Origin: Candidatus Uhrbacteria bacterium RIFCSPLOWO2_01_FULL_47_17
GTDB lineage: Bacteria; Patescibacteriota; Patescibacteriia; UBA9934; GWF2-40-263
NCBI GenBank assembly: GCA_001791305.1
Contig: MGEI01000005.1
Coordinates: 404,208 to 468,207 of the forward strand
Reading direction: 5' to 3'
Length of the DNA stretch: 64,000 bases
The notes beneath the pieces were generated by a model. The model was not told the DNA's origin. It made no database searches and saw nothing but the letters and a program-made list of their open reading frames with translations. Positions 3,728 to 46,992 of the stretch are shown one piece after another (within the stretch, counting starts at the first letter, position 1; the number at the start of each line of letters is the position of its first letter). The position numbers and the translations under genes are program-made.

Positions 3728-4441
3728 TCAGGAGGGTTTTGTGATGCGCGAATCGATAGATCGCTCCGGCTTGCCGACCCGTTGCCAGGTCGGGAACGGA
3801 ACGCGCACGCGGCAGGACTGATTCTTGAGCGGGCATTTCATGTTGTTGTGCGTCCCTGTTTTTTCAAACGGGCATACACAAGTCGCCTTATGCGTTTTCT
3901 TCGGCAGCGACGCGTACGAAATCATCTGCATGCCATGACGCATGCCAAGATGAATGGCGGCGAGGTTCGTCGTGGTCGCAAGAATGTTCTTGCTTTGGTT
4001 CTCTGAGAGGATGCGACGATAAAGCGCGTCTGCAATCGGCATATGACGACTGCCATGATAGCGATAGTCAGGATGAACCCAGAGCGTGCCGAGTTCGAAC
4101 CAGTCGCGATCCTGTTCGTCTCGACCAAGGTGCCAAAGCGCGATGCATCCGACGACGAGGTAGTTGAGTCGTGTATCAACAGCGATGATGATGTGATGCT
4201 GGTCCGCAACGGTCCGAAGTTCGAGACTCGTCTTTGTGAGCAGGTGTTCTTCATTTTGCGTTGCGTCAACGACTTGCGGAATCCACCAAGCAAAACGCTT
4301 GAGAGCTGATCCAGAGAGGTATTGAATTCCCGGTGTGCGAAACGTGTCGAACAGATTTGCGGGCGTGGTGCCAAGCGAGCTTGTTTGGAACACCGCGAGC
4401 AAATCTTTGCGTGTTTGCGGATTAAACAACGATGGGATCAT
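3728..4441 (-). CDS. GNAT-like acyltransferase with a Cys-rich C-terminal tail
   Basis: GNAT motif-A-like segment WVHPDYRYHGSRHMPIADALYRRIL and a C-terminal CVCPFEKTGTHNNMKCPLKNQSCRVRV. The start was chosen at the internal Met preceded by GGAGGA; the longer ORF reaches 4585 but would overlap the divergent gene. Confidence 0.4.
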   Translation of the reverse strand: MIPSLFNPQTRKDLLAVFQTSSLGTTPANLFDTFRTPGIQYLSGSALKRFAWWIPQVVDATQNEEHLLTKTSLELRTVADQHHIIIAVDTRLNYLVVGCIALWHLGRDEQDRDWFELGTLWVHPDYRYHGSRHMPIADALYRRILSENQSKNILATTTNLAAIHLGMRHGMQMISYASLPKKTHKATCVCPFEKTGTHNNMKCPLKNQSCRVRVPFPTWQRVGKPERSIDSRITKPS

Positions 4442-19372: not shown

Positions 19373-20257
19373 TCAAGCCGCTTGCGCGTCTGTGTTTGCG
19401 GCACGTTGCGGCTTAAAGAGAAAAAAATTTCGGACTTGTTTCACCTCGTCATCGATCCGAAAGTCGAATGTGTAGGGAATCGTCATTTGACAAGGGTGAA
19501 ACACATATCCCGGATACTGCTCATGGATGCGGGCCATGCCTTCCTGAAGACGCCGTGTCCAATCATCTGCAGAATCTTGGGTGCTGACATTTTCCTGATG
19601 GCGAACACGTTCGATCTGAAACGTTTTGTCTGTTGGATTTGCTTGTTTCACTTGGAGACAAGTCACTGCTTCGTTTTTTTCGCTGAAGACGAACAGATCA
19701 ATTCCAAGCATATATGATTCATAGACGCTTGGTAAATACATCCAGCACTCGTCGAGTTCTGAAATGATTTCGATGGTCTGTGCGCATGCGTGCGCGTAGT
19801 CGCAGCTCATGTTCCAGATGTTCGATCGGATCCCGGGCAGGGCGCCGATTTTGAGCACGCTCGGAATATCTTTCGGATCAAGATCCAAAAAGAGTTCAAC
19901 GAGTTTCTGCTTACACATGGCAACAAGAACGCTGTGAGATCTACGTTCATTGTCCGAGAATTGCGGGTGCATGAAGTGGAACGTCATGCGGTGCAAGATG
20001 ATCGCTTCAAACAGACATTTTTCCACTTCCGACAGCTGCTTTCTGAACGCGATGTATGTGGAGTCGAGCACGCGCTGAAAGAATGCGTTGTGTGTTTGCA
20101 CATGTCGTGTTTTCGAAAGCTCGGGCGCTTCCGGGAGATAGACAGGTTTGTTTTGCAAAAAGTCTTCCACACGACGCAAAATATCTGGCGTGAACATTTT
20201 GCTTCCGCGCACAAGACAGATTTCGTGATGAGTACGCAAGAATGTGTCGAGCATCAC
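19373..20257 (-). CDS. Hypothetical protein (294 aa; the start may instead be the internal Met at 20197)
   Basis: A long intact ORF with its own terminator. No family was recognised; a ThyX-like RHR..S..S.RY motif was looked for and is absent. Confidence 0.35.
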   Translation of the reverse strand: MMLDTFLRTHHEICLVRGSKMFTPDILRRVEDFLQNKPVYLPEAPELSKTRHVQTHNAFFQRVLDSTYIAFRKQLSEVEKCLFEAIILHRMTFHFMHPQFSDNERRSHSVLVAMCKQKLVELFLDLDPKDIPSVLKIGALPGIRSNIWNMSCDYAHACAQTIEIISELDECWMYLPSVYESYMLGIDLFVFSEKNEAVTCLQVKQANPTDKTFQIERVRHQENVSTQDSADDWTRRLQEGMARIHEQYPGYVFHPCQMTIPYTFDFRIDDEVKQVRNFFLFKPQRAANTDAQAA

Positions 20258-20365
20258 CTACCTCATGGAGATGGATATCCCATCTCATCTAAAAAGGACG
20301 ATATGGAAGACTACCAACAGAATCCGGTTGCGTCAAGCCTTTTTGTTCGATATGATCCTTTTACT

Positions 20366-23209
20366 ATGAGCTATAACCATCAGGAAATTGAAAAGAAATG
20401 GCAGGCCAAATGGGCGGCCAATCGAGCGGGTCATGTTGACGAGGCCGCGTCGAGAGACAACGCGCTCTATTATTTGATCATGTTTCCGTACCCATCTGGA
20501 TCTGGTTTGCACGTGGGACACGTGGAATCGCAAGCCGCGATCGATATTTTGGCTCGCATGGAACGCATGCGTGGAAAAAATGTGTTGTGTCCGATCGGAT
20601 ACGATGCCTTCGGTTTGCCCGCCGAGAATTATGCGATCAAGACGGGAGTACACCCTGCCGAGACCACAAAAAAAGCGATCGAGAATTTTCATAACCAAAT
20701 GCAATCGCTTGGTCTTTCGTTTGATTGGTCACGCGAAATTTCGACGGCTGATCCGGAATATTACAAATGGACGCAATGGTTATTTTTGTTGTTCTACAAA
20801 AACGGATTGGCGTACAGAAAAAAATCTCCCGTGAACTGGTGCGAAGGATGCCATACGGTTCTTGCAAACGAGCAGGTTGTCGCGGGAGCTTGTGAGCGTT
20901 GCGGGACGGTTGTTGTGCAAAAAGAGTTGGAGCAATGGTTTTTTCATATCACAAAATATGCAGATCGACTTCTTGCGGGATTGGATTCGATCGACTGGCC
21001 AGAGAAGATTAAGTCGATGCAACGCAACTGGATTGGGAAGAGTGTGGGGGCAGAGATAAACTTTTTAGTGATGAGTGATGAGGGATCAGGGATCAGTGAT
21101 CAGGCGAAAGATTCCCTCAAGTTTACACCGGAGCTAACCGAGTTAATTTATTCAGGAAAAAAGACCAACACGATTCGTTTGGAGAAAAAGAATTTGCAAG
21201 TTGGTGACACGGTTCGACTCATGACTCGATTGAGTGCAACAGAAACGCATTCATTCGCGTTTGCGAAAATTACGGGTGTTGATTTGATAAAGCTGAACGA
21301 CATCTCACTTGATCTCAAAGGACACGAAAGATATGAATCACGAGAAGCCATGTTAAAAAGTTATCAAGATTTTTATGGTGCAACTGTTTCGTTAGAAACA
21401 GAATTTGTTCTTTATCACTTTGCGAACGTTACGCCGCTCATTACCGTCTTCACCACACGCCCAGACACACTCTTCGGCGCAACCTATCTCGTTCTCGCGC
21501 CCGAACACGCACTCGTCGATCAGATCGTCACAGACGAACATCGATCCGAGATCGACACGTATCGAATCGCTGCATCAAAAAAGTCTGTGCTTGAACGAAC
21601 GGAATTACAAAAAGAAAAGACGGGAGTCTTCACAGGTGCCTATGCAATCAATCCGGCAAATGGAGAACAGATTCCAGTCTGGATCGCGGATTATGTGATC
21701 ACAACTTACGGAACAGGAGCGATTATGGCGGTACCCGCACACGATGCGCGCGATTTTGAGTTTGCAAAGAAATATGAGTTGCCAATCAAAGTTGTCGTGA
21801 AGCCGGCCGTGCTGCAAACGCTCATGTCCGAGACTCTCGCAGTCTCTCACGGTGCACAGTCTTCCGTCGAGATCGTCTCGGATTGTTTTACAGAACAAGG
21901 AATTGCGATCAACTCCGCGTTTCTCGATGGCCTCTCGACTGCGGACGCAAAACAAAAGATGATTGCTTGGCTCGAAGAAAAACATATTGGAAATGCAAAA
22001 ACGACTTTTCGTCTCCGTGACTGGCTTGTTTCTCGCCAGCGATACTGGGGAGCGCCGATCCCGATTATTTGGTGTGAAAATTGCGGTGCGCAGCCGGTTG
22101 AGGAAGCACAGCTTCCTGTCGAACTTCCAACCGACGTCGATTTCTCCGCCATAGGCGGATCCGCCTCCGGCGGAAAACCAACAGGTGAATCACCGCTCGT
22201 CGATTCAAACACATTTCACAATGTGAAATGTCCGACGTGCGGAAAAGCCGCGCGTCGCGAATCCGACACGATGGACACGTTCGTCGATTCGTCCTGGTAC
22301 TATCTTCGCTACACAGATCCGCACAATACGAATGCGTTCGCGGACAAATCAAAAATTGATTATTGGTGCCCGGTCGACCTGTATCTCGGCGGTGCAGAAC
22401 ATGCTGTGATGCATTTGTTGTACGCGCGATTTTTTGCGTACGCGCTTCACGATCTGGGCTATCTTGGCTTCGAAGAGCCATTCTTGAAACTCAAAAATCA
22501 AGGTCTCATTCTTGGTCCGGACGGCGACAAGATGTCAAAATCAAAAGGGAACGTGGTGAACCCGGACGAGATGGTTTCCGAATATGGCGCGGACGCACTT
22601 CGTTTGTATGAAATGTTCATGGGCCCACTCGAAGACGCAAAGCCGTGGGATACGAAAGGCGTAGTCGGCGTTCGTCGTTTTCTCGATAAGGTTCACAATT
22701 TGTGCATTCGCGTTATAGGCGGGGTCCCCAGACCCCGCGACGATGCGCATACGAAATTGATTCATAAATCCATCAAAAAAATCACGTCCGATCTCGAAGA
22801 ATTAAAATTCAACACAGCCATCTCTCAGCTCATGATTGTTGTGAATGAATTCTCGAGCGCGTCTTCGATCAACAAAGAAACGTTCGAAACGTTTTTGAAA
22901 CTCCTCGCGCCTCTCGCACCACACCTCGCCGAGGAACTGTGGGAGAAGCTTGGACACACGACGTCGATCTTTGCAGAGTCATGGCCTGTGTTCGATTCAA
23001 CACTCATCGTCGACGATGTGGTCGACATGGGTGTTCAAGTAAATGGAAAAGTTCGCGGGACGATCTCGCTTGCACCAAGTGCGGACGAGGCCACGGCAAA
23101 AGAACTCGCGTTTGCAAATGTGAATGTGATGAAATGGATTGATGGCAAAGAGATTATGAAGATTGTGTATGTGCCAGGAAAGATTTTTAACATTGTTGTA
23201 AAGGAATAG
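20366..23209 (+). CDS. leuS: Leucyl-tRNA synthetase with an inserted ASCH-like domain
   Basis: Starts MSYNHQEIEKKWQ, with PYPSGSGLHVGHV (the HIGH motif), the TTRPDTLFGATYLVLAPEH editing domain and KMSKS. A ~115-aa insertion (21067..21420) sits between the catalytic and editing regions. A family-B repeat lies in frame at 22715..22742. Confidence 0.9.
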   Translation: MSYNHQEIEKKWQAKWAANRAGHVDEAASRDNALYYLIMFPYPSGSGLHVGHVESQAAIDILARMERMRGKNVLCPIGYDAFGLPAENYAIKTGVHPAETTKKAIENFHNQMQSLGLSFDWSREISTADPEYYKWTQWLFLLFYKNGLAYRKKSPVNWCEGCHTVLANEQVVAGACERCGTVVVQKELEQWFFHITKYADRLLAGLDSIDWPEKIKSMQRNWIGKSVGAEINFLVMSDEGSGISDQAKDSLKFTPELTELIYSGKKTNTIRLEKKNLQVGDTVRLMTRLSATETHSFAFAKITGVDLIKLNDISLDLKGHERYESREAMLKSYQDFYGATVSLETEFVLYHFANVTPLITVFTTRPDTLFGATYLVLAPEHALVDQIVTDEHRSEIDTYRIAASKKSVLERTELQKEKTGVFTGAYAINPANGEQIPVWIADYVITTYGTGAIMAVPAHDARDFEFAKKYELPIKVVVKPAVLQTLMSETLAVSHGAQSSVEIVSDCFTEQGIAINSAFLDGLSTADAKQKMIAWLEEKHIGNAKTTFRLRDWLVSRQRYWGAPIPIIWCENCGAQPVEEAQLPVELPTDVDFSAIGGSASGGKPTGESPLVDSNTFHNVKCPTCGKAARRESDTMDTFVDSSWYYLRYTDPHNTNAFADKSKIDYWCPVDLYLGGAEHAVMHLLYARFFAYALHDLGYLGFEEPFLKLKNQGLILGPDGDKMSKSKGNVVNPDEMVSEYGADALRLYEMFMGPLEDAKPWDTKGVVGVRRFLDKVHNLCIRVIGGVPRPRDDAHTKLIHKSIKKITSDLEELKFNTAISQLMIVVNEFSSASSINKETFETFLKLLAPLAPHLAEELWEKLGHTTSIFAESWPVFDSTLIVDDVVDMGVQVNGKVRGTISLAPSADEATAKELAFANVNVMKWIDGKEIMKIVYVPGKIFNIVVKE
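22715..22742. repeat. Family-B palindrome ATAGGCGGGGTCCCCAGACCCCGCGACGA inside leuS (in frame, encoding IGGVPRPRDD)
   Basis: 27 of 29 nt are identical to the intergenic copy at 34038..34069. The same core occurs at 6722 and 26057. Confidence 0.7.
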
Positions 23210-35506: not shown

Positions 35507-36895
35507 TTACAATTCGCTGATGCGACGTTGCAAATCTGTTTCTGGAAAGAAGGCGAGTTCTGCGGTTGCGGTTGCGCTTCGACGAATATTCATCCAGTTT
35601 AGTTCGCCAAGCGCGACGCCGTCGCAGAAACCGCGCATAGGGCGCTTTTCTTGGTTCATGGCTTCGAATCGAATGCTTGTTTCGATCGGAAGCGGTTCGT
35701 TCTTCCAATGATGGGAGCACACGCAGCTTCCAACAAGTTGGAGCATTTGTGTGCCGGGGATGAGGCGTGATCCGCCCATGCGGTACGCATACCCCGTTGA
35801 TCCAGCCGCCGTTGAGACGAGCATGATGTCTGACATGATGGGATCGAATTTCACTTCGCCGTTCATGAGGACACGTGTCCAAATTGTTTGCCCGCTGAGG
35901 CGATCCACCCATGCATCGTTGAATGCGAGCATGTTGGATTGTGTGCCGTCAACAGATTCCGCCTCTATGTATAACAGCGATTCTGTGTACGTCTTGAGTT
36001 CGAGGTGTGATTGCAGTTGATCAACAATCTTCGTTTCGTCGAAGTCGTTGAGCAAGAATCCTTTCGTGCCGCGATTGAGTCCGAGGAAGGGAACATGGTC
36101 ACGCCACAGACGACGAATCGTATGAAGCATGAATCCATCGCCCCCAATCACGACAATGCAATTGTGTTCACCGATGGGTGTCTGAAACGCATCTGATAAT
36201 CTCTTGCCGATCGCAACCGTACTTTCATTGCGGTCGTTTGCGACAACAAGCGGTCGAAGTGTTTCTTGAAATTCCGCAGGACCTCGCATGATGCGTCCCG
36301 TGAATAACTGATGTCGTGCGATGTATTGACCAATCGCTGGTGACACAAGATCGTCGATTGACTGATGCCTGAAGATCCGTTCGCGAATTTCCGAACTGGA
36401 TCCACGGAGCGTCGGTTCGATGATCGTGTGGTGTGGCGGAAGATCTTCGGGCACGCATTCGATTCCATGGCGCATGTGCACGAGGAAGTGAAGTGTGTTC
36501 CAGACTTCCTGTCCGCAAAACCACGTTCGATGAATCTCGGACAATCCATGCGCGCCACCGGCAACGATGTCGGCGCCGATCACGTGACAGATTTCATGAT
36601 TCGGATACAGCGCACGATAGCGCTGATCTATGTCGAACGAACGCGTAAACACAGATTGCTCGAGATCTGTGAGATCAATTTCGACACGCGGGATGCGGCC
36701 GAACGCGAGGTCACAGAGTGCTGCACGAGACGCAAGTGAAAGATCGTTCGTCGTCTCTTTGTCCGGTCGCGGCCCGCACGGAAGAACGATGAGACGATCA
36801 TCCGGTCCGAGCTTACTCGCAAGTTTCTGAACAATCGCCTCATGATGCAATCCCGGAGGATTGAAACTGCCACCGTACAGAAAAATCTTTGGCAT
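35507..36895 (-). CDS. Bifunctional NaMN/NMN adenylyltransferase (NadD-like) - NAD kinase (NadK) fusion
   Basis: N-terminal IFLYGGSFNPPGLHHEAI and SSEIRERI; C-terminal VVIGGDGFMLHTIR (GGDG) and TAAGSTGYAYRMGG; 462 aa. Confidence 0.7.
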   Translation of the reverse strand: MPKIFLYGGSFNPPGLHHEAIVQKLASKLGPDDRLIVLPCGPRPDKETTNDLSLASRAALCDLAFGRIPRVEIDLTDLEQSVFTRSFDIDQRYRALYPNHEICHVIGADIVAGGAHGLSEIHRTWFCGQEVWNTLHFLVHMRHGIECVPEDLPPHHTIIEPTLRGSSSEIRERIFRHQSIDDLVSPAIGQYIARHQLFTGRIMRGPAEFQETLRPLVVANDRNESTVAIGKRLSDAFQTPIGEHNCIVVIGGDGFMLHTIRRLWRDHVPFLGLNRGTKGFLLNDFDETKIVDQLQSHLELKTYTESLLYIEAESVDGTQSNMLAFNDAWVDRLSGQTIWTRVLMNGEVKFDPIMSDIMLVSTAAGSTGYAYRMGGSRLIPGTQMLQLVGSCVCSHHWKNEPLPIETSIRFEAMNQEKRPMRGFCDGVALGELNWMNIRRSATATAELAFFPETDLQRRISEL

Positions 36896-37042: not shown

Positions 37043-37813
37043 CTACTCTTGGATGAATCTTTCCGCGATCAGGAGTTTACGGAGGATATGCGGGCTCGAT
37101 TTGTCGACGACGTAGAGGTTCTCTCTTTTATCGGCGAACGTGCCAGCGACGAGTTCGGCGGCGATCTCGTCTGCCGCACGACCCGAGCCTTTCACCACAA
37201 TGGTGGGCCAACCTTTCTTGATCGAGCGCATGACTTCATCGCGCGTGATCGCACCGCCGTTCCAGGCAATGACGCCGGCGCGGTGGAAGCCGCCGTATTG
37301 CGTGAGCTGATCCATGAGTCCGAACGCGGCATCCAAGTCGCCATCCCAACCGAGCTTGCCTTCCGCCCCGTCTTGAACGAGGAGGATTGCGTTCATGCTC
37401 GGGTTTGGCGCGGTGCCGTAGTCGTCGAGTACGAGGCGAGACTCTTCGACGAGACGCAGAACGTCCGTGCGAGGAGTCGAACCGAGTGCGACACACTTTG
37501 GATTGCCCGCGGCAACAACGCCAGGAACATCTGTGACCATCGGATCGAGGTTGCCGTCTTTGTCGAATTGGCGCGTGCCACCCGACCAGATCATGCCCTC
37601 GAAACCCTTGAATGCGATCTGGAAAAAATCCATCATCGCTTTCTTATCATCGGCATTCATCCCTTTGCATCCGCCGCTGATGCGAATGCAGACTTTACGC
37701 GCCGCACGCGTTGCCATGAGGGCGAACGTTGCGGGGAGTTGAGCTCCCTTGTCTTGAATGATCAGAACAGTCCTGCCGTCCTGACCAGTTACCGTTTTTG
37801 CGGACATGAACAC
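37043..37813 (-). CDS. SLOG/LOG-like Rossmann-fold protein, paralog 1
   Basis: RISGGCKGM..., WSGGTRQFD..., WNGGAITRDEV... and VVKGSGRAADEI parallel the LOG motifs GGG.G.M / PGG.GT.EE. Confidence 0.4.
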   Translation of the reverse strand: MFMSAKTVTGQDGRTVLIIQDKGAQLPATFALMATRAARKVCIRISGGCKGMNADDKKAMMDFFQIAFKGFEGMIWSGGTRQFDKDGNLDPMVTDVPGVVAAGNPKCVALGSTPRTDVLRLVEESRLVLDDYGTAPNPSMNAILLVQDGAEGKLGWDGDLDAAFGLMDQLTQYGGFHRAGVIAWNGGAITRDEVMRSIKKGWPTIVVKGSGRAADEIAAELVAGTFADKRENLYVVDKSSPHILRKLLIAERFIQE

Positions 37814-37858
37814 CTTCGCACTTCCTAATTTTCCACACCCATGATTTCACGGACGCAG

Positions 37859-38605
37859 TTACTCCGGGGGAAGCATCCCGAAGGAAATGAGATGTTGGCG
37901 AATGTCGCGCGAATCTTTTTCGGCGACACGAACGTTTGGATGTGCTTCGAGAAACGCATTGTTGCTCGCGTACTCATCCGCCTTGCGACCACTTCTTCGT
38001 ATGAGGAGGACGGGCCAACCACGTTTTGCGGTTGCGAGGATTTCGCGTTCCGTCACGCCACCGCCGTTGTAGACGATGAGCAATGATTTGAATTCCGCGA
38101 ACTCGCGCAGGTCTTTCGTGATCTGCAAGCACTCTTCGAACTCCGCGTCCCAAATGGCCGGTTGATCCGGCGACACTTGAACGAGCAGGCACATATCTTG
38201 GTTCGGATGAATGATGGTGCGATAGGTATCCGCATCACTCTCCGAAACCACGAGTCCGTGTTCCGTGATTTTGATCTCCGACGTCCTCGGCACAACGCCG
38301 AGTGACACCATGTTTGGACACACGTCGCGAATGTGCGACGGAATCTCGGTGATCCCAGGCACAATCTGCGACACGTCTTGTTTCTGAATCATGCGCGTGC
38401 CACCAAAGAGCATGGCGCCTGCAAATCCAGCGAATGCATCTGCGAAGAGCGAAAGAAAATCCCGCGCATCCTCGGCGGACATGTATCCACATCCGCCCGT
38501 GAGTCGTACAACAACTCGATTGCGAGCGGTCGTGAGTCTCAGAGCGATCTTTACTGACCGGTCTCCTTGATTCTTCACGAACAAGGAGGGAATGATGTGT
38601 GACAT
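37859..38605 (-). CDS. SLOG/LOG-like Rossmann-fold protein, paralog 2
   Basis: RLTGGCGYMSAED, LFGGTRMIQ, YNGGGVTEREI and LLIRRSGRKADEY share their motif order with paralog 1 (37043..37813). Confidence 0.4.
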   Translation of the reverse strand: MSHIIPSLFVKNQGDRSVKIALRLTTARNRVVVRLTGGCGYMSAEDARDFLSLFADAFAGFAGAMLFGGTRMIQKQDVSQIVPGITEIPSHIRDVCPNMVSLGVVPRTSEIKITEHGLVVSESDADTYRTIIHPNQDMCLLVQVSPDQPAIWDAEFEECLQITKDLREFAEFKSLLIVYNGGGVTEREILATAKRGWPVLLIRRSGRKADEYASNNAFLEAHPNVRVAEKDSRDIRQHLISFGMLPPE

Positions 38606-43959: not shown

Positions 43960-46900
43960 GTGTCGAATCAAGAGAAAAAAGGTGCATTCGGGTTCATTGT
44001 GAATGAAGCGGTTGGAAAAGTGGAACCTGTTCTTGTCGTAGTTGATAAGAATGGGGATGCAGAAGTGTTCGATGTTCTGAGTGTTCGTCAACAAGCATCA
44101 AAAAGTCTTCCGTTCGACGATTACGAGGCTCAGTTCCTCGATCTTGTGCGACAGAATCAGGTCGTCATCCTCGCGGCCGAAACCGGCGCGGGGAAGTCGA
44201 CCAAGGGTCCGCTCGCGCTCCTGCGTGCAGGGCTCGGTGGCAGCAAGTTGATCGGGGTTTCCGAACCTCGTCGACCGGCTGCAACCTTGCTTGCAAAGTG
44301 GGTGGCGGAACTTTACGGAACTAAACTTGGTGACGAGGTTGGTTATCAGATTGGTCAGGATCGCACGCTTGGATCCTCGACGAAGCTCGTGTATCTGACC
44401 GAAGGCGTCCTTCTGAACCAGCTCCACTCGGATCCGCTTCTCTCGCGCTACAGCGTCATCGTCCTCGACGAGGTGCATGAGCGTGGGGTGAATCAGGATT
44501 TGTTGATGGCGCTCGTGAAGAACGTGCTTCCGAAGCGGCCTGACCTCAAAGTTGTGGTCATGTCGGCCACGATCGATACGGACAAGTTTTCAAAGTACTT
44601 CGGCAATGCTCCTGTGCTCACGGTTCCCGGTCGGGTTTTCCCGGTTGAGATCCGTTATGCAAAGGAGACTCCGGAGAATGGCAACATGGTCAAGGCTGCG
44701 ATCGAAAAGGTTCTCGAGATTTTGCATAGCAACGAGCCGGGCGACATCCTCGTTTTCCTCCCGGATCAGTCCACCATCATGCAAGTTGTGAGCGCGCTCG
44801 AAAAAGAAATGGAGCGCGAACTCTCGCGTTACCGGTTCCTGCCGCTTTACGGCTCGCAGGCACCGGATGATCAAGCCGAAGTCTTCGTGGTCGATCATCG
44901 TCGTCGCGTCATTGTGGCGACGAACATCGCGGAAACCTCGCTCACGATTGATCCTCTTGGACACACCGTCGATTCTGGGCTCATCAAGGCGACGGTCTAC
45001 GTCGATGCCAACATGTCCGCGCTGCAAGTGACCGAGCATTCGAAAGCTGGTTGCAATCAACGCGCAGGACGAGTTGGTCGAACCAAAGGTGGTATCTGCC
45101 ACCGTCTGTATACGAGAGAAGATTTCGAAAGCCGCGTGGAATTCACGAAGCCCGAGATCTTGCGCATGTCGCTCGATCAAGTGCTTCTGGACCTGCGTTG
45201 CATGAAGCATTCGCTTGCGGAAATCCTCGCTCTCGACCTCATGGATGCTCCGAAGCCCGAACAGTGGAAGGACGCCGAAACGCGTCTGAAGCTGCTTGGT
45301 GCGCTCGGCGCGGACGGGGAGGTCACGAAGGATGGGTTCAGGATGAAGAAGTTCCATGTGGAGCCGATGATCGGCCGCATGATCCTTGAGGGCGAAAAGC
45401 ACGGATGTCTGGAAGAAGTGATCGTGATCGCTGCGTGCCTTGCAAGTACGCGCCCGATCTTCGTCGCTCCGAAAGACAAGCGTGAAGAAGCTCGCAGGGC
45501 AAAGAAGGCCTTCGACGATCCGAACTCGGACTTGCTCACCTTTCTCAAGGTGTGGAGGATCTGGGATCAGTCCGAAGGAGATCATCGTTGGGCGAGGGAA
45601 AATTTCCTCTCGTCTCGTGCGCTCAGTCAGGTGGATCGCATGCGCGACCAGCTGATCGATACGCTCGAGCGTGAAGGGGTTGAATACTCGTCTTCGAATA
45701 ACGAGCTCGCGCTCCGTAAGGCGGTTGCCGCGGGACTCATCGTGAATATTGCGCAGAGGACAGGCGAATACAATTACGCATGGAACGGTCGCGGAACGTT
45801 CATCTCTCCAGGCTCCGCGCTGTTTGGAGATGATCCGCCGCGACTGCTCGTGTGCACCAAAGTCATGGAATCCACTTCGACCCGTACGAATAATCGAACG
45901 GGACGTCCGGAACAGGTGACACGTGCATACATGCACAACTGTCACGCGATTGAACTTGCGTGGCTGAATGAACTCGTGCCCGCGGAAGCGTGCGTGGTTG
46001 ATGTGACTTTTGAGACGGATTATGAAACGAAGAAGGATCAGTTGGTGTATCGACGTTCGTGGAACGGAATCGAACTCGAGCGTAAAACCTTGGAGACGAT
46101 TCCGGAATCACTCATTCCGTTCATTGCCGCTTGGGTGACCAAGCAGCTTGCAGACGGGTATGGATTTTTCTGTGATAGCGCGCCGCAGCTCGTGAAGATA
46201 AAGAAGCGGATCGCTCCAGCGATTCCGTTGTATGTCTTTGGTGACGAACGGCGTCAGCTCATGCAGCCGACCATGGAATTGTTTACGAAAGCGATTGCGA
46301 AGAAGATCGCGGGGAAGCCCACGATCGAACTCGTTCTCGCGGCAGTGAACGCAATCACCGCGGAAGACATTTTGATCGGTGACGCACTCAAGGTTTACCA
46401 AGCGCAACACGCGGCAGAGATGCAACGTGAGCGTGAGGAAACCGAGGCGCGTGCTCGTCGTGAACAAAACCTGCGCGAACAACAGGAACGCATGTTGGAA
46501 CAGCAGCGAAAGTCTCGCGAAAAGGCCGCGCAAGAGCGAGCCGAACGTGAGCGGATTGAAGCTGAGCGGTGCGTGACGGTTCGTTCGAACGTGGTTCGTC
46601 TTCCGGAGTCGCTTGTGGATCAACGCGAGTTGATTCTCCTGTGGCTCTCGGAGCTCGAAGAGGCAAAGACCGCGCTTCAAGCCGAACTCGCATGGGTGGA
46701 AACACTCAAGCGTGGTGTGGTGAAAGGTGAGATCATTGCTCTCACGTTTCGTGATCGGGGTGACGGGTTCATGGTTGCGGATTGGAAACGTGAGTTGGTC
46801 ATGGCTCCGGCAAACGACCTCGCTCATTATCCGAAAAGCAACGAATCTTGGTGGTGCCACGTGATTCCTAGGAACGGTCCGACGCAAATTTTGCTCTGCC

Positions 46901-46992
46901 GCAAGGTAGGCAAGAAGCGGGCAGACATCGAGAAAATCCTTCAAGATGGTCTCGAAATGTTCCCCGGCCTCCCGAGTCAGCTCCTTCAGTAG
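43960..46992 (+). CDS. hrpA: ATP-dependent DEAH-box RNA helicase HrpA-like
   Basis: AAETGAGKST (motif I), LDEVHER (DEVH), MSATID and QRAGRVGR, plus HA2/OB-like regions and a coiled-coil C-terminal extension. GTG start with an AAAGAGGTG SD. Confidence 0.75.
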   Translation: MSNQEKKGAFGFIVNEAVGKVEPVLVVVDKNGDAEVFDVLSVRQQASKSLPFDDYEAQFLDLVRQNQVVILAAETGAGKSTKGPLALLRAGLGGSKLIGVSEPRRPAATLLAKWVAELYGTKLGDEVGYQIGQDRTLGSSTKLVYLTEGVLLNQLHSDPLLSRYSVIVLDEVHERGVNQDLLMALVKNVLPKRPDLKVVVMSATIDTDKFSKYFGNAPVLTVPGRVFPVEIRYAKETPENGNMVKAAIEKVLEILHSNEPGDILVFLPDQSTIMQVVSALEKEMERELSRYRFLPLYGSQAPDDQAEVFVVDHRRRVIVATNIAETSLTIDPLGHTVDSGLIKATVYVDANMSALQVTEHSKAGCNQRAGRVGRTKGGICHRLYTREDFESRVEFTKPEILRMSLDQVLLDLRCMKHSLAEILALDLMDAPKPEQWKDAETRLKLLGALGADGEVTKDGFRMKKFHVEPMIGRMILEGEKHGCLEEVIVIAACLASTRPIFVAPKDKREEARRAKKAFDDPNSDLLTFLKVWRIWDQSEGDHRWARENFLSSRALSQVDRMRDQLIDTLEREGVEYSSSNNELALRKAVAAGLIVNIAQRTGEYNYAWNGRGTFISPGSALFGDDPPRLLVCTKVMESTSTRTNNRTGRPEQVTRAYMHNCHAIELAWLNELVPAEACVVDVTFETDYETKKDQLVYRRSWNGIELERKTLETIPESLIPFIAAWVTKQLADGYGFFCDSAPQLVKIKKRIAPAIPLYVFGDERRQLMQPTMELFTKAIAKKIAGKPTIELVLAAVNAITAEDILIGDALKVYQAQHAAEMQREREETEARARREQNLREQQERMLEQQRKSREKAAQERAERERIEAERCVTVRSNVVRLPESLVDQRELILLWLSELEEAKTALQAELAWVETLKRGVVKGEIIALTFRDRGDGFMVADWKRELVMAPANDLAHYPKSNESWWCHVIPRNGPTQILLCRKVGKKRADIEKILQDGLEMFPGLPSQLLQ

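Follow-up and report, generated by a model that had tools for sequence, protein, structure and literature searches.

Introduction

The solved structure closest to the domain described here is that of YqfB of Escherichia coli, the N4-acetylcytidine amidohydrolase, in which Lys21 acts as the base, Thr24 as the nucleophile and Glu74 as the acid, and Arg26 forms the oxyanion hole (PMC6972931). Mutagenesis of YqfB found Lys21, Thr24 and Arg26 to be essential and Glu74 to be worth ~100-1000-fold; the T24S variant was active, H70A cut the activity ~10-fold, and among the substrates the free nucleoside was the best, its kcat/Km reaching 2.8e6 M-1 s-1 (PMC6972931). According to a 2026 preprint (10.64898/2026.02.27.708502), the threonine form of the ASCH motif, GxKxxTxR, defines a YqfB-type 'GKTR' subgroup, the enzymes of which have no detected nucleic-acid binding, yet strip N4-acetylcytidine (ac4C) from tRNA in vitro, as ac4C34 and ac4C12. 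In the same preprint, archaeal ASCH proteins gain tRNA affinity through a fused helix-turn-helix (HTH) domain. The ASCH proteins that bind nucleic acids have an isoelectric point (pI) near or above 9. Here, an ASCH domain of the YqfB type is described that lies inside the editing domain of a leucyl-tRNA synthetase (LeuRS). The leuS gene encoding it is found in a 64,000-nucleotide (nt) stretch, hereafter the window, of Candidatus Uhrbacteria bacterium RIFCSPLOWO2_01_FULL_47_17, a member of the candidate phyla radiation (CPR) (GenBank assembly GCA_001791305.1, contig MGEI01000005.1, positions 404,208 to 468,207 of the forward strand).

Bacterial synthetases are usually portrayed as lean enzymes. 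A literature search found no paper in which LeuRS is said to contain an enzyme domain, be it ASCH, NUDIX or another, and autonomous enzyme domains nested in a synthetase editing domain are not described in the searchable literature. Synthetase fusions are not mentioned in the preprint on ASCH erasers (10.64898/2026.02.27.708502), and only gut metabolome papers were found in the literature on N4-acetylcytidine and Patescibacteria.

An ASCH domain in the editing domain of LeuRS

The open reading frame (ORF) at 19790-23209 (+) encodes a bacterial-type LeuRS that retrieves the Thermus thermophilus enzyme (1h3n) from the PDB with an E value of 2e-234. The alignment covers query residues 2-236 (chain 3-237) and resumes at query residues 359-731 (chain 243-593), so that about 120 query residues stand in for a hairpin turn of five. 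The insert comprises 119 amino acids (aa 236-354, nt 21071-21427, plus strand) and, searched alone, matches the Pfam ASCH family PF04266 with 38.2 bits (cut-off 21.2, E 2.5e-9) over profile positions 1-95 of 103; the same family is matched with 34.1 bits, against the same cut-off, in the full-length protein. The insert was modelled with AlphaFold2 using 33 family members, and the mean predicted local distance difference test score (pLDDT) was 95.8. When this model was compared with the PDB using Foldseek, the top match was E. coli YqfB (9kyf; template modelling score 0.72/0.77, probability 1.0), ZmASCH and PH0355 were also retrieved, and the top 20 matches were all ASCH or DUF984-type proteins with a probability of 1.0. 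YqfB was likewise the first match of the family profile among PDB sequences (E 4e-7). The inserted segment makes up an entire, folded ASCH domain of YqfB type, with a Thr-Lys-Glu triad plus Arg.

The position of the domain within the host could be defined closely (Table 1). The segment GAEINFLV aligns with T. thermophilus LeuRS up to residue 237 and forms strand E225-235 in the model of the full-length protein, and the editing-domain profile PF13603 is split between positions ~18 and 19, the match resuming at position 19 with residue 355. Given this split and the host strand 228-235 that precedes it, the ASCH domain breaks the first beta-hairpin of the CP1 editing domain; it is nested in CP1, which is itself nested in the Rossmann fold, and its end is 9-10 residues upstream of the TTRPDT motif of the editing site. 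The full-length model had a pLDDT of 88.5 and a predicted template modelling score of 0.80, with ASCH blocks at pLDDT 86-97. The N-side linker differs in length and sequence between embedded copies and was the weakest part of the region (pLDDT 71 for block 241-250), while on the C-side an unbroken strand, E346-363, joins the last strand of ASCH to that of LeuRS. Since the weak linker is thus paired with a continuous strand, the model suggests an attachment that is flexible on the N-side and stiffer on the C-side.

The earlier note on this DNA, made from the sequence alone, had recognized an ASCH-like (PUA-fold) domain at the entry to the editing domain of LeuRS that standard LeuRS lacks. The Pfam, 1h3n, AlphaFold2 and Foldseek results all bear this out: alignment to the T. 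thermophilus enzyme, a check that the note had itself proposed, delimits the insertion (break at query 236/359), and the profile and fold searches return ASCH proteins, YqfB first. Some particulars were revised. The large insertion is real, though it extends over 21071-21427 and 119 aa, not 21067-21420 and ~115 aa; it does not lie between the catalytic core and the editing domain, as had been supposed, but splits PF13603 inside CP1; and its octapeptide reads GxKxxTxR and not GxKxxExR.

Other explanations of the extra segment were also considered. The site is not the published 'CP1 hairpin', a term which denotes the ZN-1 neck (Huang et al. 2014, PMC4138327). An intein or mobile element was rejected, as Pfam matches ASCH alone (and DUF3850 weakly); in the sequence, the N-junction showed no Cys, Ser or Thr, and the C-junction no His-Asn. 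An assembly chimera was rejected because the in-frame insert is found in more than 35 independent assemblies. Comparison of the junctions with a syntenic allele lacking ASCH disclosed no direct repeats or other scars pointing to a mechanism of insertion.

The host enzyme

The host scored 1024.9 bits with the NCBIfam leuS_bact equivalog TIGR00396 (cut-off 548.4) and matched the Pfam families tRNA-synt_1, tRNA-synt_1_2 and Anticodon_1, with 198.6 bits for the editing domain PF13603. The anticodon-binding and C-terminal domains are both present, and the leucine-specific domain is missing, the alignment skipping from T. thermophilus residue 593 to 638. The threonine-rich TTRPDT motif is an established part of the LeuRS editing pocket. 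Judged by its HIGH, KMSKS, TTRPDT and GTG..AHD signatures and the equivalog match, the host is a complete synthetase whose editing site is intact.

The genes flanking leuS (AAA_28, a 295-aa minus-strand gene, UDP-glucose dehydrogenase, ComEC and NDK) are the same as those at locus L028, the LeuRS of which (P0009) has no ASCH domain, so that by gene order the window leuS is an orthologous locus and not a paralogue. Its protein cluster includes Candidatus Uhrbacteria proteins from Rifle groundwater, annotated merely as 'leucine--tRNA ligase'.

The length of 947 aa given in the earlier note holds insofar as similarity to other LeuRS starts at ATG 20366 (MSYNHQEIEKKW). However, the product may be 968 aa long, because an alternative start, ATG 20303, has AAGGA just 5' and is the choice of NCBI for the same protein cluster. 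The JGI start, GTG 19790, gives 1139 aa; the coding region then overlaps a 294-aa ORF of the opposite strand (19373-20257), of which L028 has a syntenic counterpart.

Catalytic residues

As the motif of the insert has Thr and not Glu, the domain was placed in the YqfB-type 'GKTR' subgroup. A total of 34 LeuRS-embedded ASCH copies were gathered, and the 28 with complete flanks were compared for conservation. Lys and Arg of the octapeptide are found in 28/28, and the Thr in 27/28, with Ser in the remaining one. The equivalent of YqfB Glu74 is Glu in 25/28 and Asp in two more, and that of Tyr89 is Tyr in all 28. It is thus probable, on the conservation of these residues, that the insert is catalytically competent.

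Distribution and phylogeny

A profile of the embedded domain was used to scan one genome per species (185,579 species); since two short peptide patterns were used, the counts are lower bounds. Relatives do carry the insert, a point that the earlier note had wished to see checked: at least 25 embedded-ASCH loci were confirmed in species genomes, and 25/25 are inside leuS. Their taxon labels are Uhrbacteria, Peribacteria and mostly Saccharibacteria, including an oral metagenome-assembled genome (MAG); one locus is labelled 'uncultured Gammaproteobacteria' MAG, and its sequence matches Uhrbacteria-type proteins. An oral Saccharibacteria LeuRS cluster has 246 member sequences, with 916 aa in all members listed, and precomputed Pfam annotation already has PF04266 on ASCH-LeuRS proteins.

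The domain is at the editing hairpin in 24/25 loci. The exception is L025 (Saccharibacteria MAG, 29% GC; 4001-4306), in which a related ASCH sequence, SGKKTNTIRLDKKNF, takes the place of the ZN-2 CxxC knuckle, between TGESPL and RETNTM, of a LeuRS with a shortened editing domain. In a rough neighbour-joining tree of the ASCH sequences, drawn with no support values, the hairpin copies form one clade, and L025 and P0129 branch outside it, which suggests that the family was inserted into LeuRS independently two or three times. Four free-standing proteins (P0121, P0123, P0124 and P0125) nest within the embedded clade and, from their place in the tree, may be donors or escapees; of these, P0121 and P0124 have 51-53% identity to the insert and were confirmed to be genes of their own. 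LeuRS with and without ASCH are interleaved in a shallow clade of Uhrbacteria, and gains or losses of the domain are therefore frequent.

At locus L027 (108-991), the gene for the free-standing ASCH protein P0124 overlaps by 4 nt the start of a GNAT acetyltransferase gene, after which come His_Phos_1 and Inositol_P genes. The ASCH and GNAT proteins of this locus may be an acetyl writer/eraser pair.

Selection and composition

The ratio of non-synonymous to synonymous substitution rates (dN/dS) in four close pairs was 0.09-0.38 for the ASCH domain and 0.04-0.06 for the flanking LeuRS, and the mean pairwise identity among the 28 embedded copies was 55% for ASCH and 57.5% for conserved LeuRS segments. 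The domain is under purifying selection, at precisely the residues that catalysis requires. These values bear on the idea that the insert is a neutral passenger of an insertion-tolerant, hypervariable loop, functionless or decaying. Such an origin would agree with the range of hairpin lengths described below, with the low-complexity fillers of many CPR LeuRS, with the patchy presence of ASCH in the shallow Uhrbacteria clade and with a low GC content at third codon positions (GC3) of the insert in 24/25 loci. It is nonetheless highly improbable, as a decaying passenger would hardly have a dN/dS of ~0.1, keep its catalytic residues across Uhrbacteria, Peribacteria and Saccharibacteria, show over deep divergences a conservation close to that of the LeuRS core, be predicted to fold with high confidence, or persist at a constant listed length through a cluster as large as that of the oral Saccharibacteria.

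The GC3 of the insert is 0.378, compared with 0.534 for the rest of leuS, and is lower than that of every equal-sized leuS window elsewhere. At the 25 related loci (L001-L025), the mean difference from the flanks was -0.095, although the GC content of the insert followed, overall, that of the host. In addition, pairwise identity of the ASCH domain levels off at ~0.52-0.57 irrespective of the divergence of the LeuRS body. The GC3 deficit and the identity plateau possibly reflect repeated replacement by lateral transfer, weaker selection on codons, or a stretch of slow translation that aids folding of the nested domain.

Other domains in CPR LeuRS

The editing hairpin, here called site A, is hypervariable in CPR LeuRS, with lengths of 10 to 231 aa in 92 sequences. 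Besides ASCH, it is occupied by a Ham1-like domain (P0015) or by a Ser_hydrolase/alpha-beta-hydrolase domain (P0092, P0095, P0108, P0115 and P0119). A second loop of the editing domain, site B, follows FAKKYxLP and holds a NUDIX domain in P0068 (scanned) and in P0060, P0079, P0100 and P0116 (precomputed Pfam), and an Aminoglyc_resit-like nucleotidyltransferase in P0107 and P0110 (scanned) and, by sequence resemblance only, in P0092. In P0090, P0094, P0108 and P0114, site B carries an insert of ~115-130 aa with no Pfam match and the shared motifs GFWNE/GSWY and FIFK.K. Double inserts occur in P0116 (ASCH and NUDIX) and P0092 (alpha/beta hydrolase and the insert resembling a nucleotidyltransferase). 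Outside LeuRS, multidomain proteins of the same ASCH family (n = 34) carry NUDIX (6), RNase H (3), NYN (1) or alpha/beta hydrolase (1) domains.

Low-complexity peptides also recur in varied loops of CPR LeuRS, at site A, at site B and in the anticodon-domain linker. P0008 has EKIAASSMTPPRNDRK and EKIAASSKTPPRNDMK at two sites of LeuRS, and further examples are P0090 (EIALSSQTPPRNDT), P0118 (EIATSLSTPRNDN) and P0101 (EIAASPAAPRNDK); P0005 and P0019 have a different filler in common, SSRPTEGS...LVDDSSL. The window leuS itself contains a 30-nt in-frame extra segment, TCCGCCATAGGCGGATCCGCCTCCGGCGGA (22145-22174, plus strand), which encodes SAIGGSASGG, is present in a single copy in the window and consists of two tandem mini-hairpins (TCCGCC-nnn-GGCGGA). 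Relatives without the segment read DFKPTGESPL; a peptide near-identical to the encoded one, SARGGSASGG, is found at another LeuRS position in P0015, and the encoded residues 597-606 are disordered in the full-length model (pLDDT <50). The segment has the look of a short palindromic element that entered the gene in frame, and the recurring fillers resemble the in-frame insertion of repeated palindromic DNA elements, such as the Rickettsia palindromic elements (RPEs).

Function of the embedded domain

The explanation that we tentatively favour, although its chance of being right is a little short of even, is that the domain is an active N4-acylcytidine deacylase, an ac4C 'eraser', which uses LeuRS as its tRNA-binding platform. 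This reading is preferred by analogy, on account of the conserved catalytic residues, the exclusive and repeated link with LeuRS, the lack of RNA affinity of its own and the precedent of the archaeal ASCH-HTH proteins. In the proposed mechanism, the ASCH domain is grafted on the tip of the first editing-domain beta-hairpin of a LeuRS that stays a full synthetase. Having no RNA affinity of its own, it would borrow the tRNA-binding surface of LeuRS and would remove the N4-acyl group from a cytidine of the tRNA held by the synthetase, for which tRNALeu is the obvious candidate. We infer an active domain whose substrate is an acylated cytidine, carried on tRNA and not in the form of a free nucleoside.

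The charge of the domain is of consequence here. The whole-domain pI of the window ASCH is 6.3 and its net charge -1, with medians of 5.2 and -3 for the 34 embedded copies, so that the pI near or above 9 associated with nucleic-acid-binding ASCH proteins is not seen, although the surface may have a local basic patch; since the embedded domains are acidic, any tRNA affinity would have to derive from the host LeuRS. The earlier note had seen in the insert an extra RNA-binding module that could affect editing or specificity. In that case a non-catalytic PUA-like 'reader' would touch tRNALeu, for example at the CCA end or at a modified base, and tune aminoacylation, translocation to the editing site or specificity. 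ASCH domains do belong to the PUA-like fold class, and TRIP4, ZmASCH and TthASCH bind RNA or DNA; the nearness of the insert to TTRPDT and the continuous strand of the model also suggest a fairly rigid mount by the editing pocket. This role is, however, very unlikely, given the acidic to neutral domains, the YqfB-type proteins without detected nucleic-acid binding, a strict conservation of the catalytic Lys, Thr, Arg and Glu that mere binding does not need, close orthologues that function without ASCH, and the unrelated enzymes that occupy the same site in other CPR LeuRS.

The nature of the substrate is less easily settled. Ham1 (ITPase-type) and NUDIX are classic folds of nucleotide-pool house-cleaning, and CPR bacteria rely on nucleotide salvage. 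The same active enzyme could thus act on free N4-acetylcytidine or acylated cytosine nucleosides, in salvage or pool cleaning, with LeuRS as a permissive and constitutively expressed carrier. This is a credible alternative, if somewhat unlikely to be the correct one. The Ham1-like and Ser_hydrolase domains at the same hairpin and NUDIX at the second loop speak for it, as do the NUDIX domains of 6/34 multidomain relatives outside LeuRS, the combination of ASCH and NUDIX in P0116, the dispensability of the insert in syntenic orthologues and the preference of YqfB for the free nucleoside (kcat/Km up to 2.8e6 M-1 s-1, PMC6972931). It leaves unaccounted for, on the other hand, why LeuRS is the constant host (25/25 genome matches, with apparently at least two insertion sites or lineages), and a salvage enzyme would gain no obvious kinetic benefit from being mounted on a synthetase.

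Several observations tell against a deacylase acting on LeuRS-bound tRNA. The NCBIfam YqfB equivalog NF003443, the only family hit, scored 18.3 bits against a cut-off of 93, and because the score is below this cut-off the insert is, on sequence grounds, not an orthologue of YqfB; it represents a separate ASCH subfamily that shares the catalytic motif. Asp27 and His70, which are 100% conserved within the YqfB branch, are not retained: the position of Asp27 is Leu in 28/28 embedded copies, and that of His70 has no His, a His being found instead directly before the Glu (GHE). No acetyltransferase of the TmcA type was found among the ~30 window ORFs scanned, and there is no tRNALeu gene in the window, which has only tRNA-Lys and tRNA-Arg, or in the related loci; an Rfam scan of the window gave these two tRNAs only and no leader RNA. 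The unrelated hydrolases at site A (Ham1-like, alpha/beta hydrolase) and the NUDIX-ASCH fusions outside LeuRS fit a nucleotide-pool role equally well. Last, the closest LeuRS in the neighbour-joining tree, P0009 of L028, has a 20-aa hairpin at the site and no ASCH domain in a syntenic locus with 79% nt identity, from which it follows that canonical LeuRS function does not require the insert.

Table 1 Features of leuS and of its ASCH insert. Positions are those of the window; residues are numbered from ATG 20366.
Feature	Position (nt)	Strand	Remarks
leuS	20366..23209	+	947 aa from ATG 20366; NCBIfam, PDB 1h3n and Pfam matches
HIGH signature, HVGH, aa 49-52	20510..20521	+	synthetic site; read from sequence; H49, G51, H52 invariant in 89-sequence alignment
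GAEINFLV, aa 228-235	21047..21070	+	first beta-strand of the CP1 editing domain; last host stretch before the insert
N-side linker MSDEGSGISDQAK, aa 236-248	21071..21109	+	low-complexity; short tandem-like repeats GTGATGA x2, GGGATCA x2
ASCH core DSLKF...VLYHF, aa 249-352	21110..21421	+	Pfam, AlphaFold2, Foldseek, PDB profile search
Octapeptide G264-K-K266-T-N-T269-I-R271	21155..21178	+	GxKxxTxR, 'GKTR' type; by YqfB analogy, Lys predicted as base, Thr as nucleophile, Arg as oxyanion hole
G319-H320-E321 motif	21320..21328	+	E321 aligns with YqfB Glu74, the catalytic acid (hidden Markov model alignment to 9kyf/1te7)
Tyr337	21374..21376	+	equivalent to YqfB Tyr89 (Tyr of 'DIYPG') in hidden Markov model alignment; invariant in 33/33 family members
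C-side junction ANVTPL, aa 353-358	21422..21439	+	passes directly into the host strand
TTRPDT, aa 363-368	21452..21469	+	threonine-rich editing-site motif; T363, R365, D367, T368 invariant in 89-sequence alignment
GTGAIMAVPAHD, aa 449-460	21710..21745	+	editing-site segment with universal Asp; G449, G451, D460 invariant in 89-sequence alignment
Site B filler LQTLMSETLAVSHGAQSSVE	21812..21871	+	~20 aa in the editing domain, disordered; pLDDT <50 over residues 485-504
KMSKS loop, aa 722-726	22529..22543	+	read from sequence; M723, S724, K725 invariant in 89-sequence alignment

Other genes of the window

Three further regions were noted, at 35507-36895 (-), 37043-38605 (-) and 44506-46992 (+). 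They include a single ORF that joins a CTP_transf_like (NadD-like) domain with NAD_kinase, two tandem SLOG/LSDAT_prok genes that come next, and a helicase that shows only the C-terminal HrpA-type modules (Helicase_C, HA2 and OB). The remaining window holds ordinary CPR housekeeping genes, for RNase III, a class II aminoacyl-tRNA synthetase, RNase Y, TruB, IF-2, TrxB, NadE, MurA, EF-G and EF-Tu.

Significance

If the ASCH domain is active, the window LeuRS would be the first synthetase that can deacylate a nucleobase. The claim that ASCH proteins erase ac4C from tRNA, which is recent and still unreviewed, would then have independent backing from genomes, and tRNALeu would be indicated as a target in a phylum with essentially uncharacterised tRNA modifications. 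The presence of the fusion in human oral Saccharibacteria, in the 916-aa cluster of 246 sequences, makes the hypothesis testable with recombinant protein.

The hairpin and the second loop are natural insertion-tolerant sites of LeuRS, and the set of inserted domains (ASCH, NUDIX, Ham1 and alpha/beta hydrolase) may be a sign that, in bacteria with reduced genomes, tRNA charging is connected with the quality control of nucleotides or tRNA. In a wider and unlikely reading, CPR LeuRS would be a modular platform that repeatedly gains autonomous hydrolase or transferase domains (ASCH, NUDIX, Ham1-like, alpha/beta hydrolase and a nucleotidyltransferase), at the two editing loops and once at ZN-2. The fusion would then be a natural 'Rosetta stone', from which it could be read that tRNA is the physiological substrate of this ASCH clade, that tRNALeu of these bacteria bears an N4-acylated cytidine and that the cognate synthetase takes this mark off; such a synthetase would edit the body of the tRNA as well as the amino acid.

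Comparison with known systems

The insert and YqfB (9kyf, 1te7) have in common a length of ~100 aa, the beta-barrel fold, the GxKxxTxR motif, the aligned Glu and Tyr and an acidic character. They differ in that identity is only ~20%, Asp27 is replaced by Leu and the His adjoins the Glu, whereas in YqfB it lies four residues upstream. Moreover, YqfB is a free-standing protein, while the window ASCH is nested inside another enzyme. Closer in sequence are free-standing ASCH proteins of 105-116 aa from CPR and other bacteria (for example P0121, P0124 and P0130), which have 40-53% identity to the insert and share its signature LKF...GxKTxTxRL...GHE...YYG, but differ in not being embedded.

The logic of a catalytic ASCH domain combined with a separate module for tRNA affinity, proposed here for LeuRS, is shared with the archaeal ASCH-HTH (AAAD_HTH) erasers (10.64898/2026.02.27.708502). 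In these, a small C-terminal HTH domain is joined end to end, whereas in the window the ASCH domain is internal to an essential synthetase of 830 aa.

Like the known inserts of class Ia synthetases, namely the leucine-specific domain of LeuRS, ZN-1 or the 'CP1 hairpin', and the peripheral inserts of the editing domain, the ASCH domain is a surface-loop module that spares the core chemistry. The known LeuRS inserts are, however, synthetase-specific structural elements, while ASCH is an autonomous type of enzyme that is also free-standing elsewhere. The NCBIfam model NF040702, 'ileS_w_GNAT', describes by its name an isoleucine--tRNA ligase with an N-acetyltransferase domain. On the strength of that name only, isoleucyl-tRNA synthetase with GNAT is a precedent for an acyl-transfer enzyme domain carried on a class Ia synthetase.

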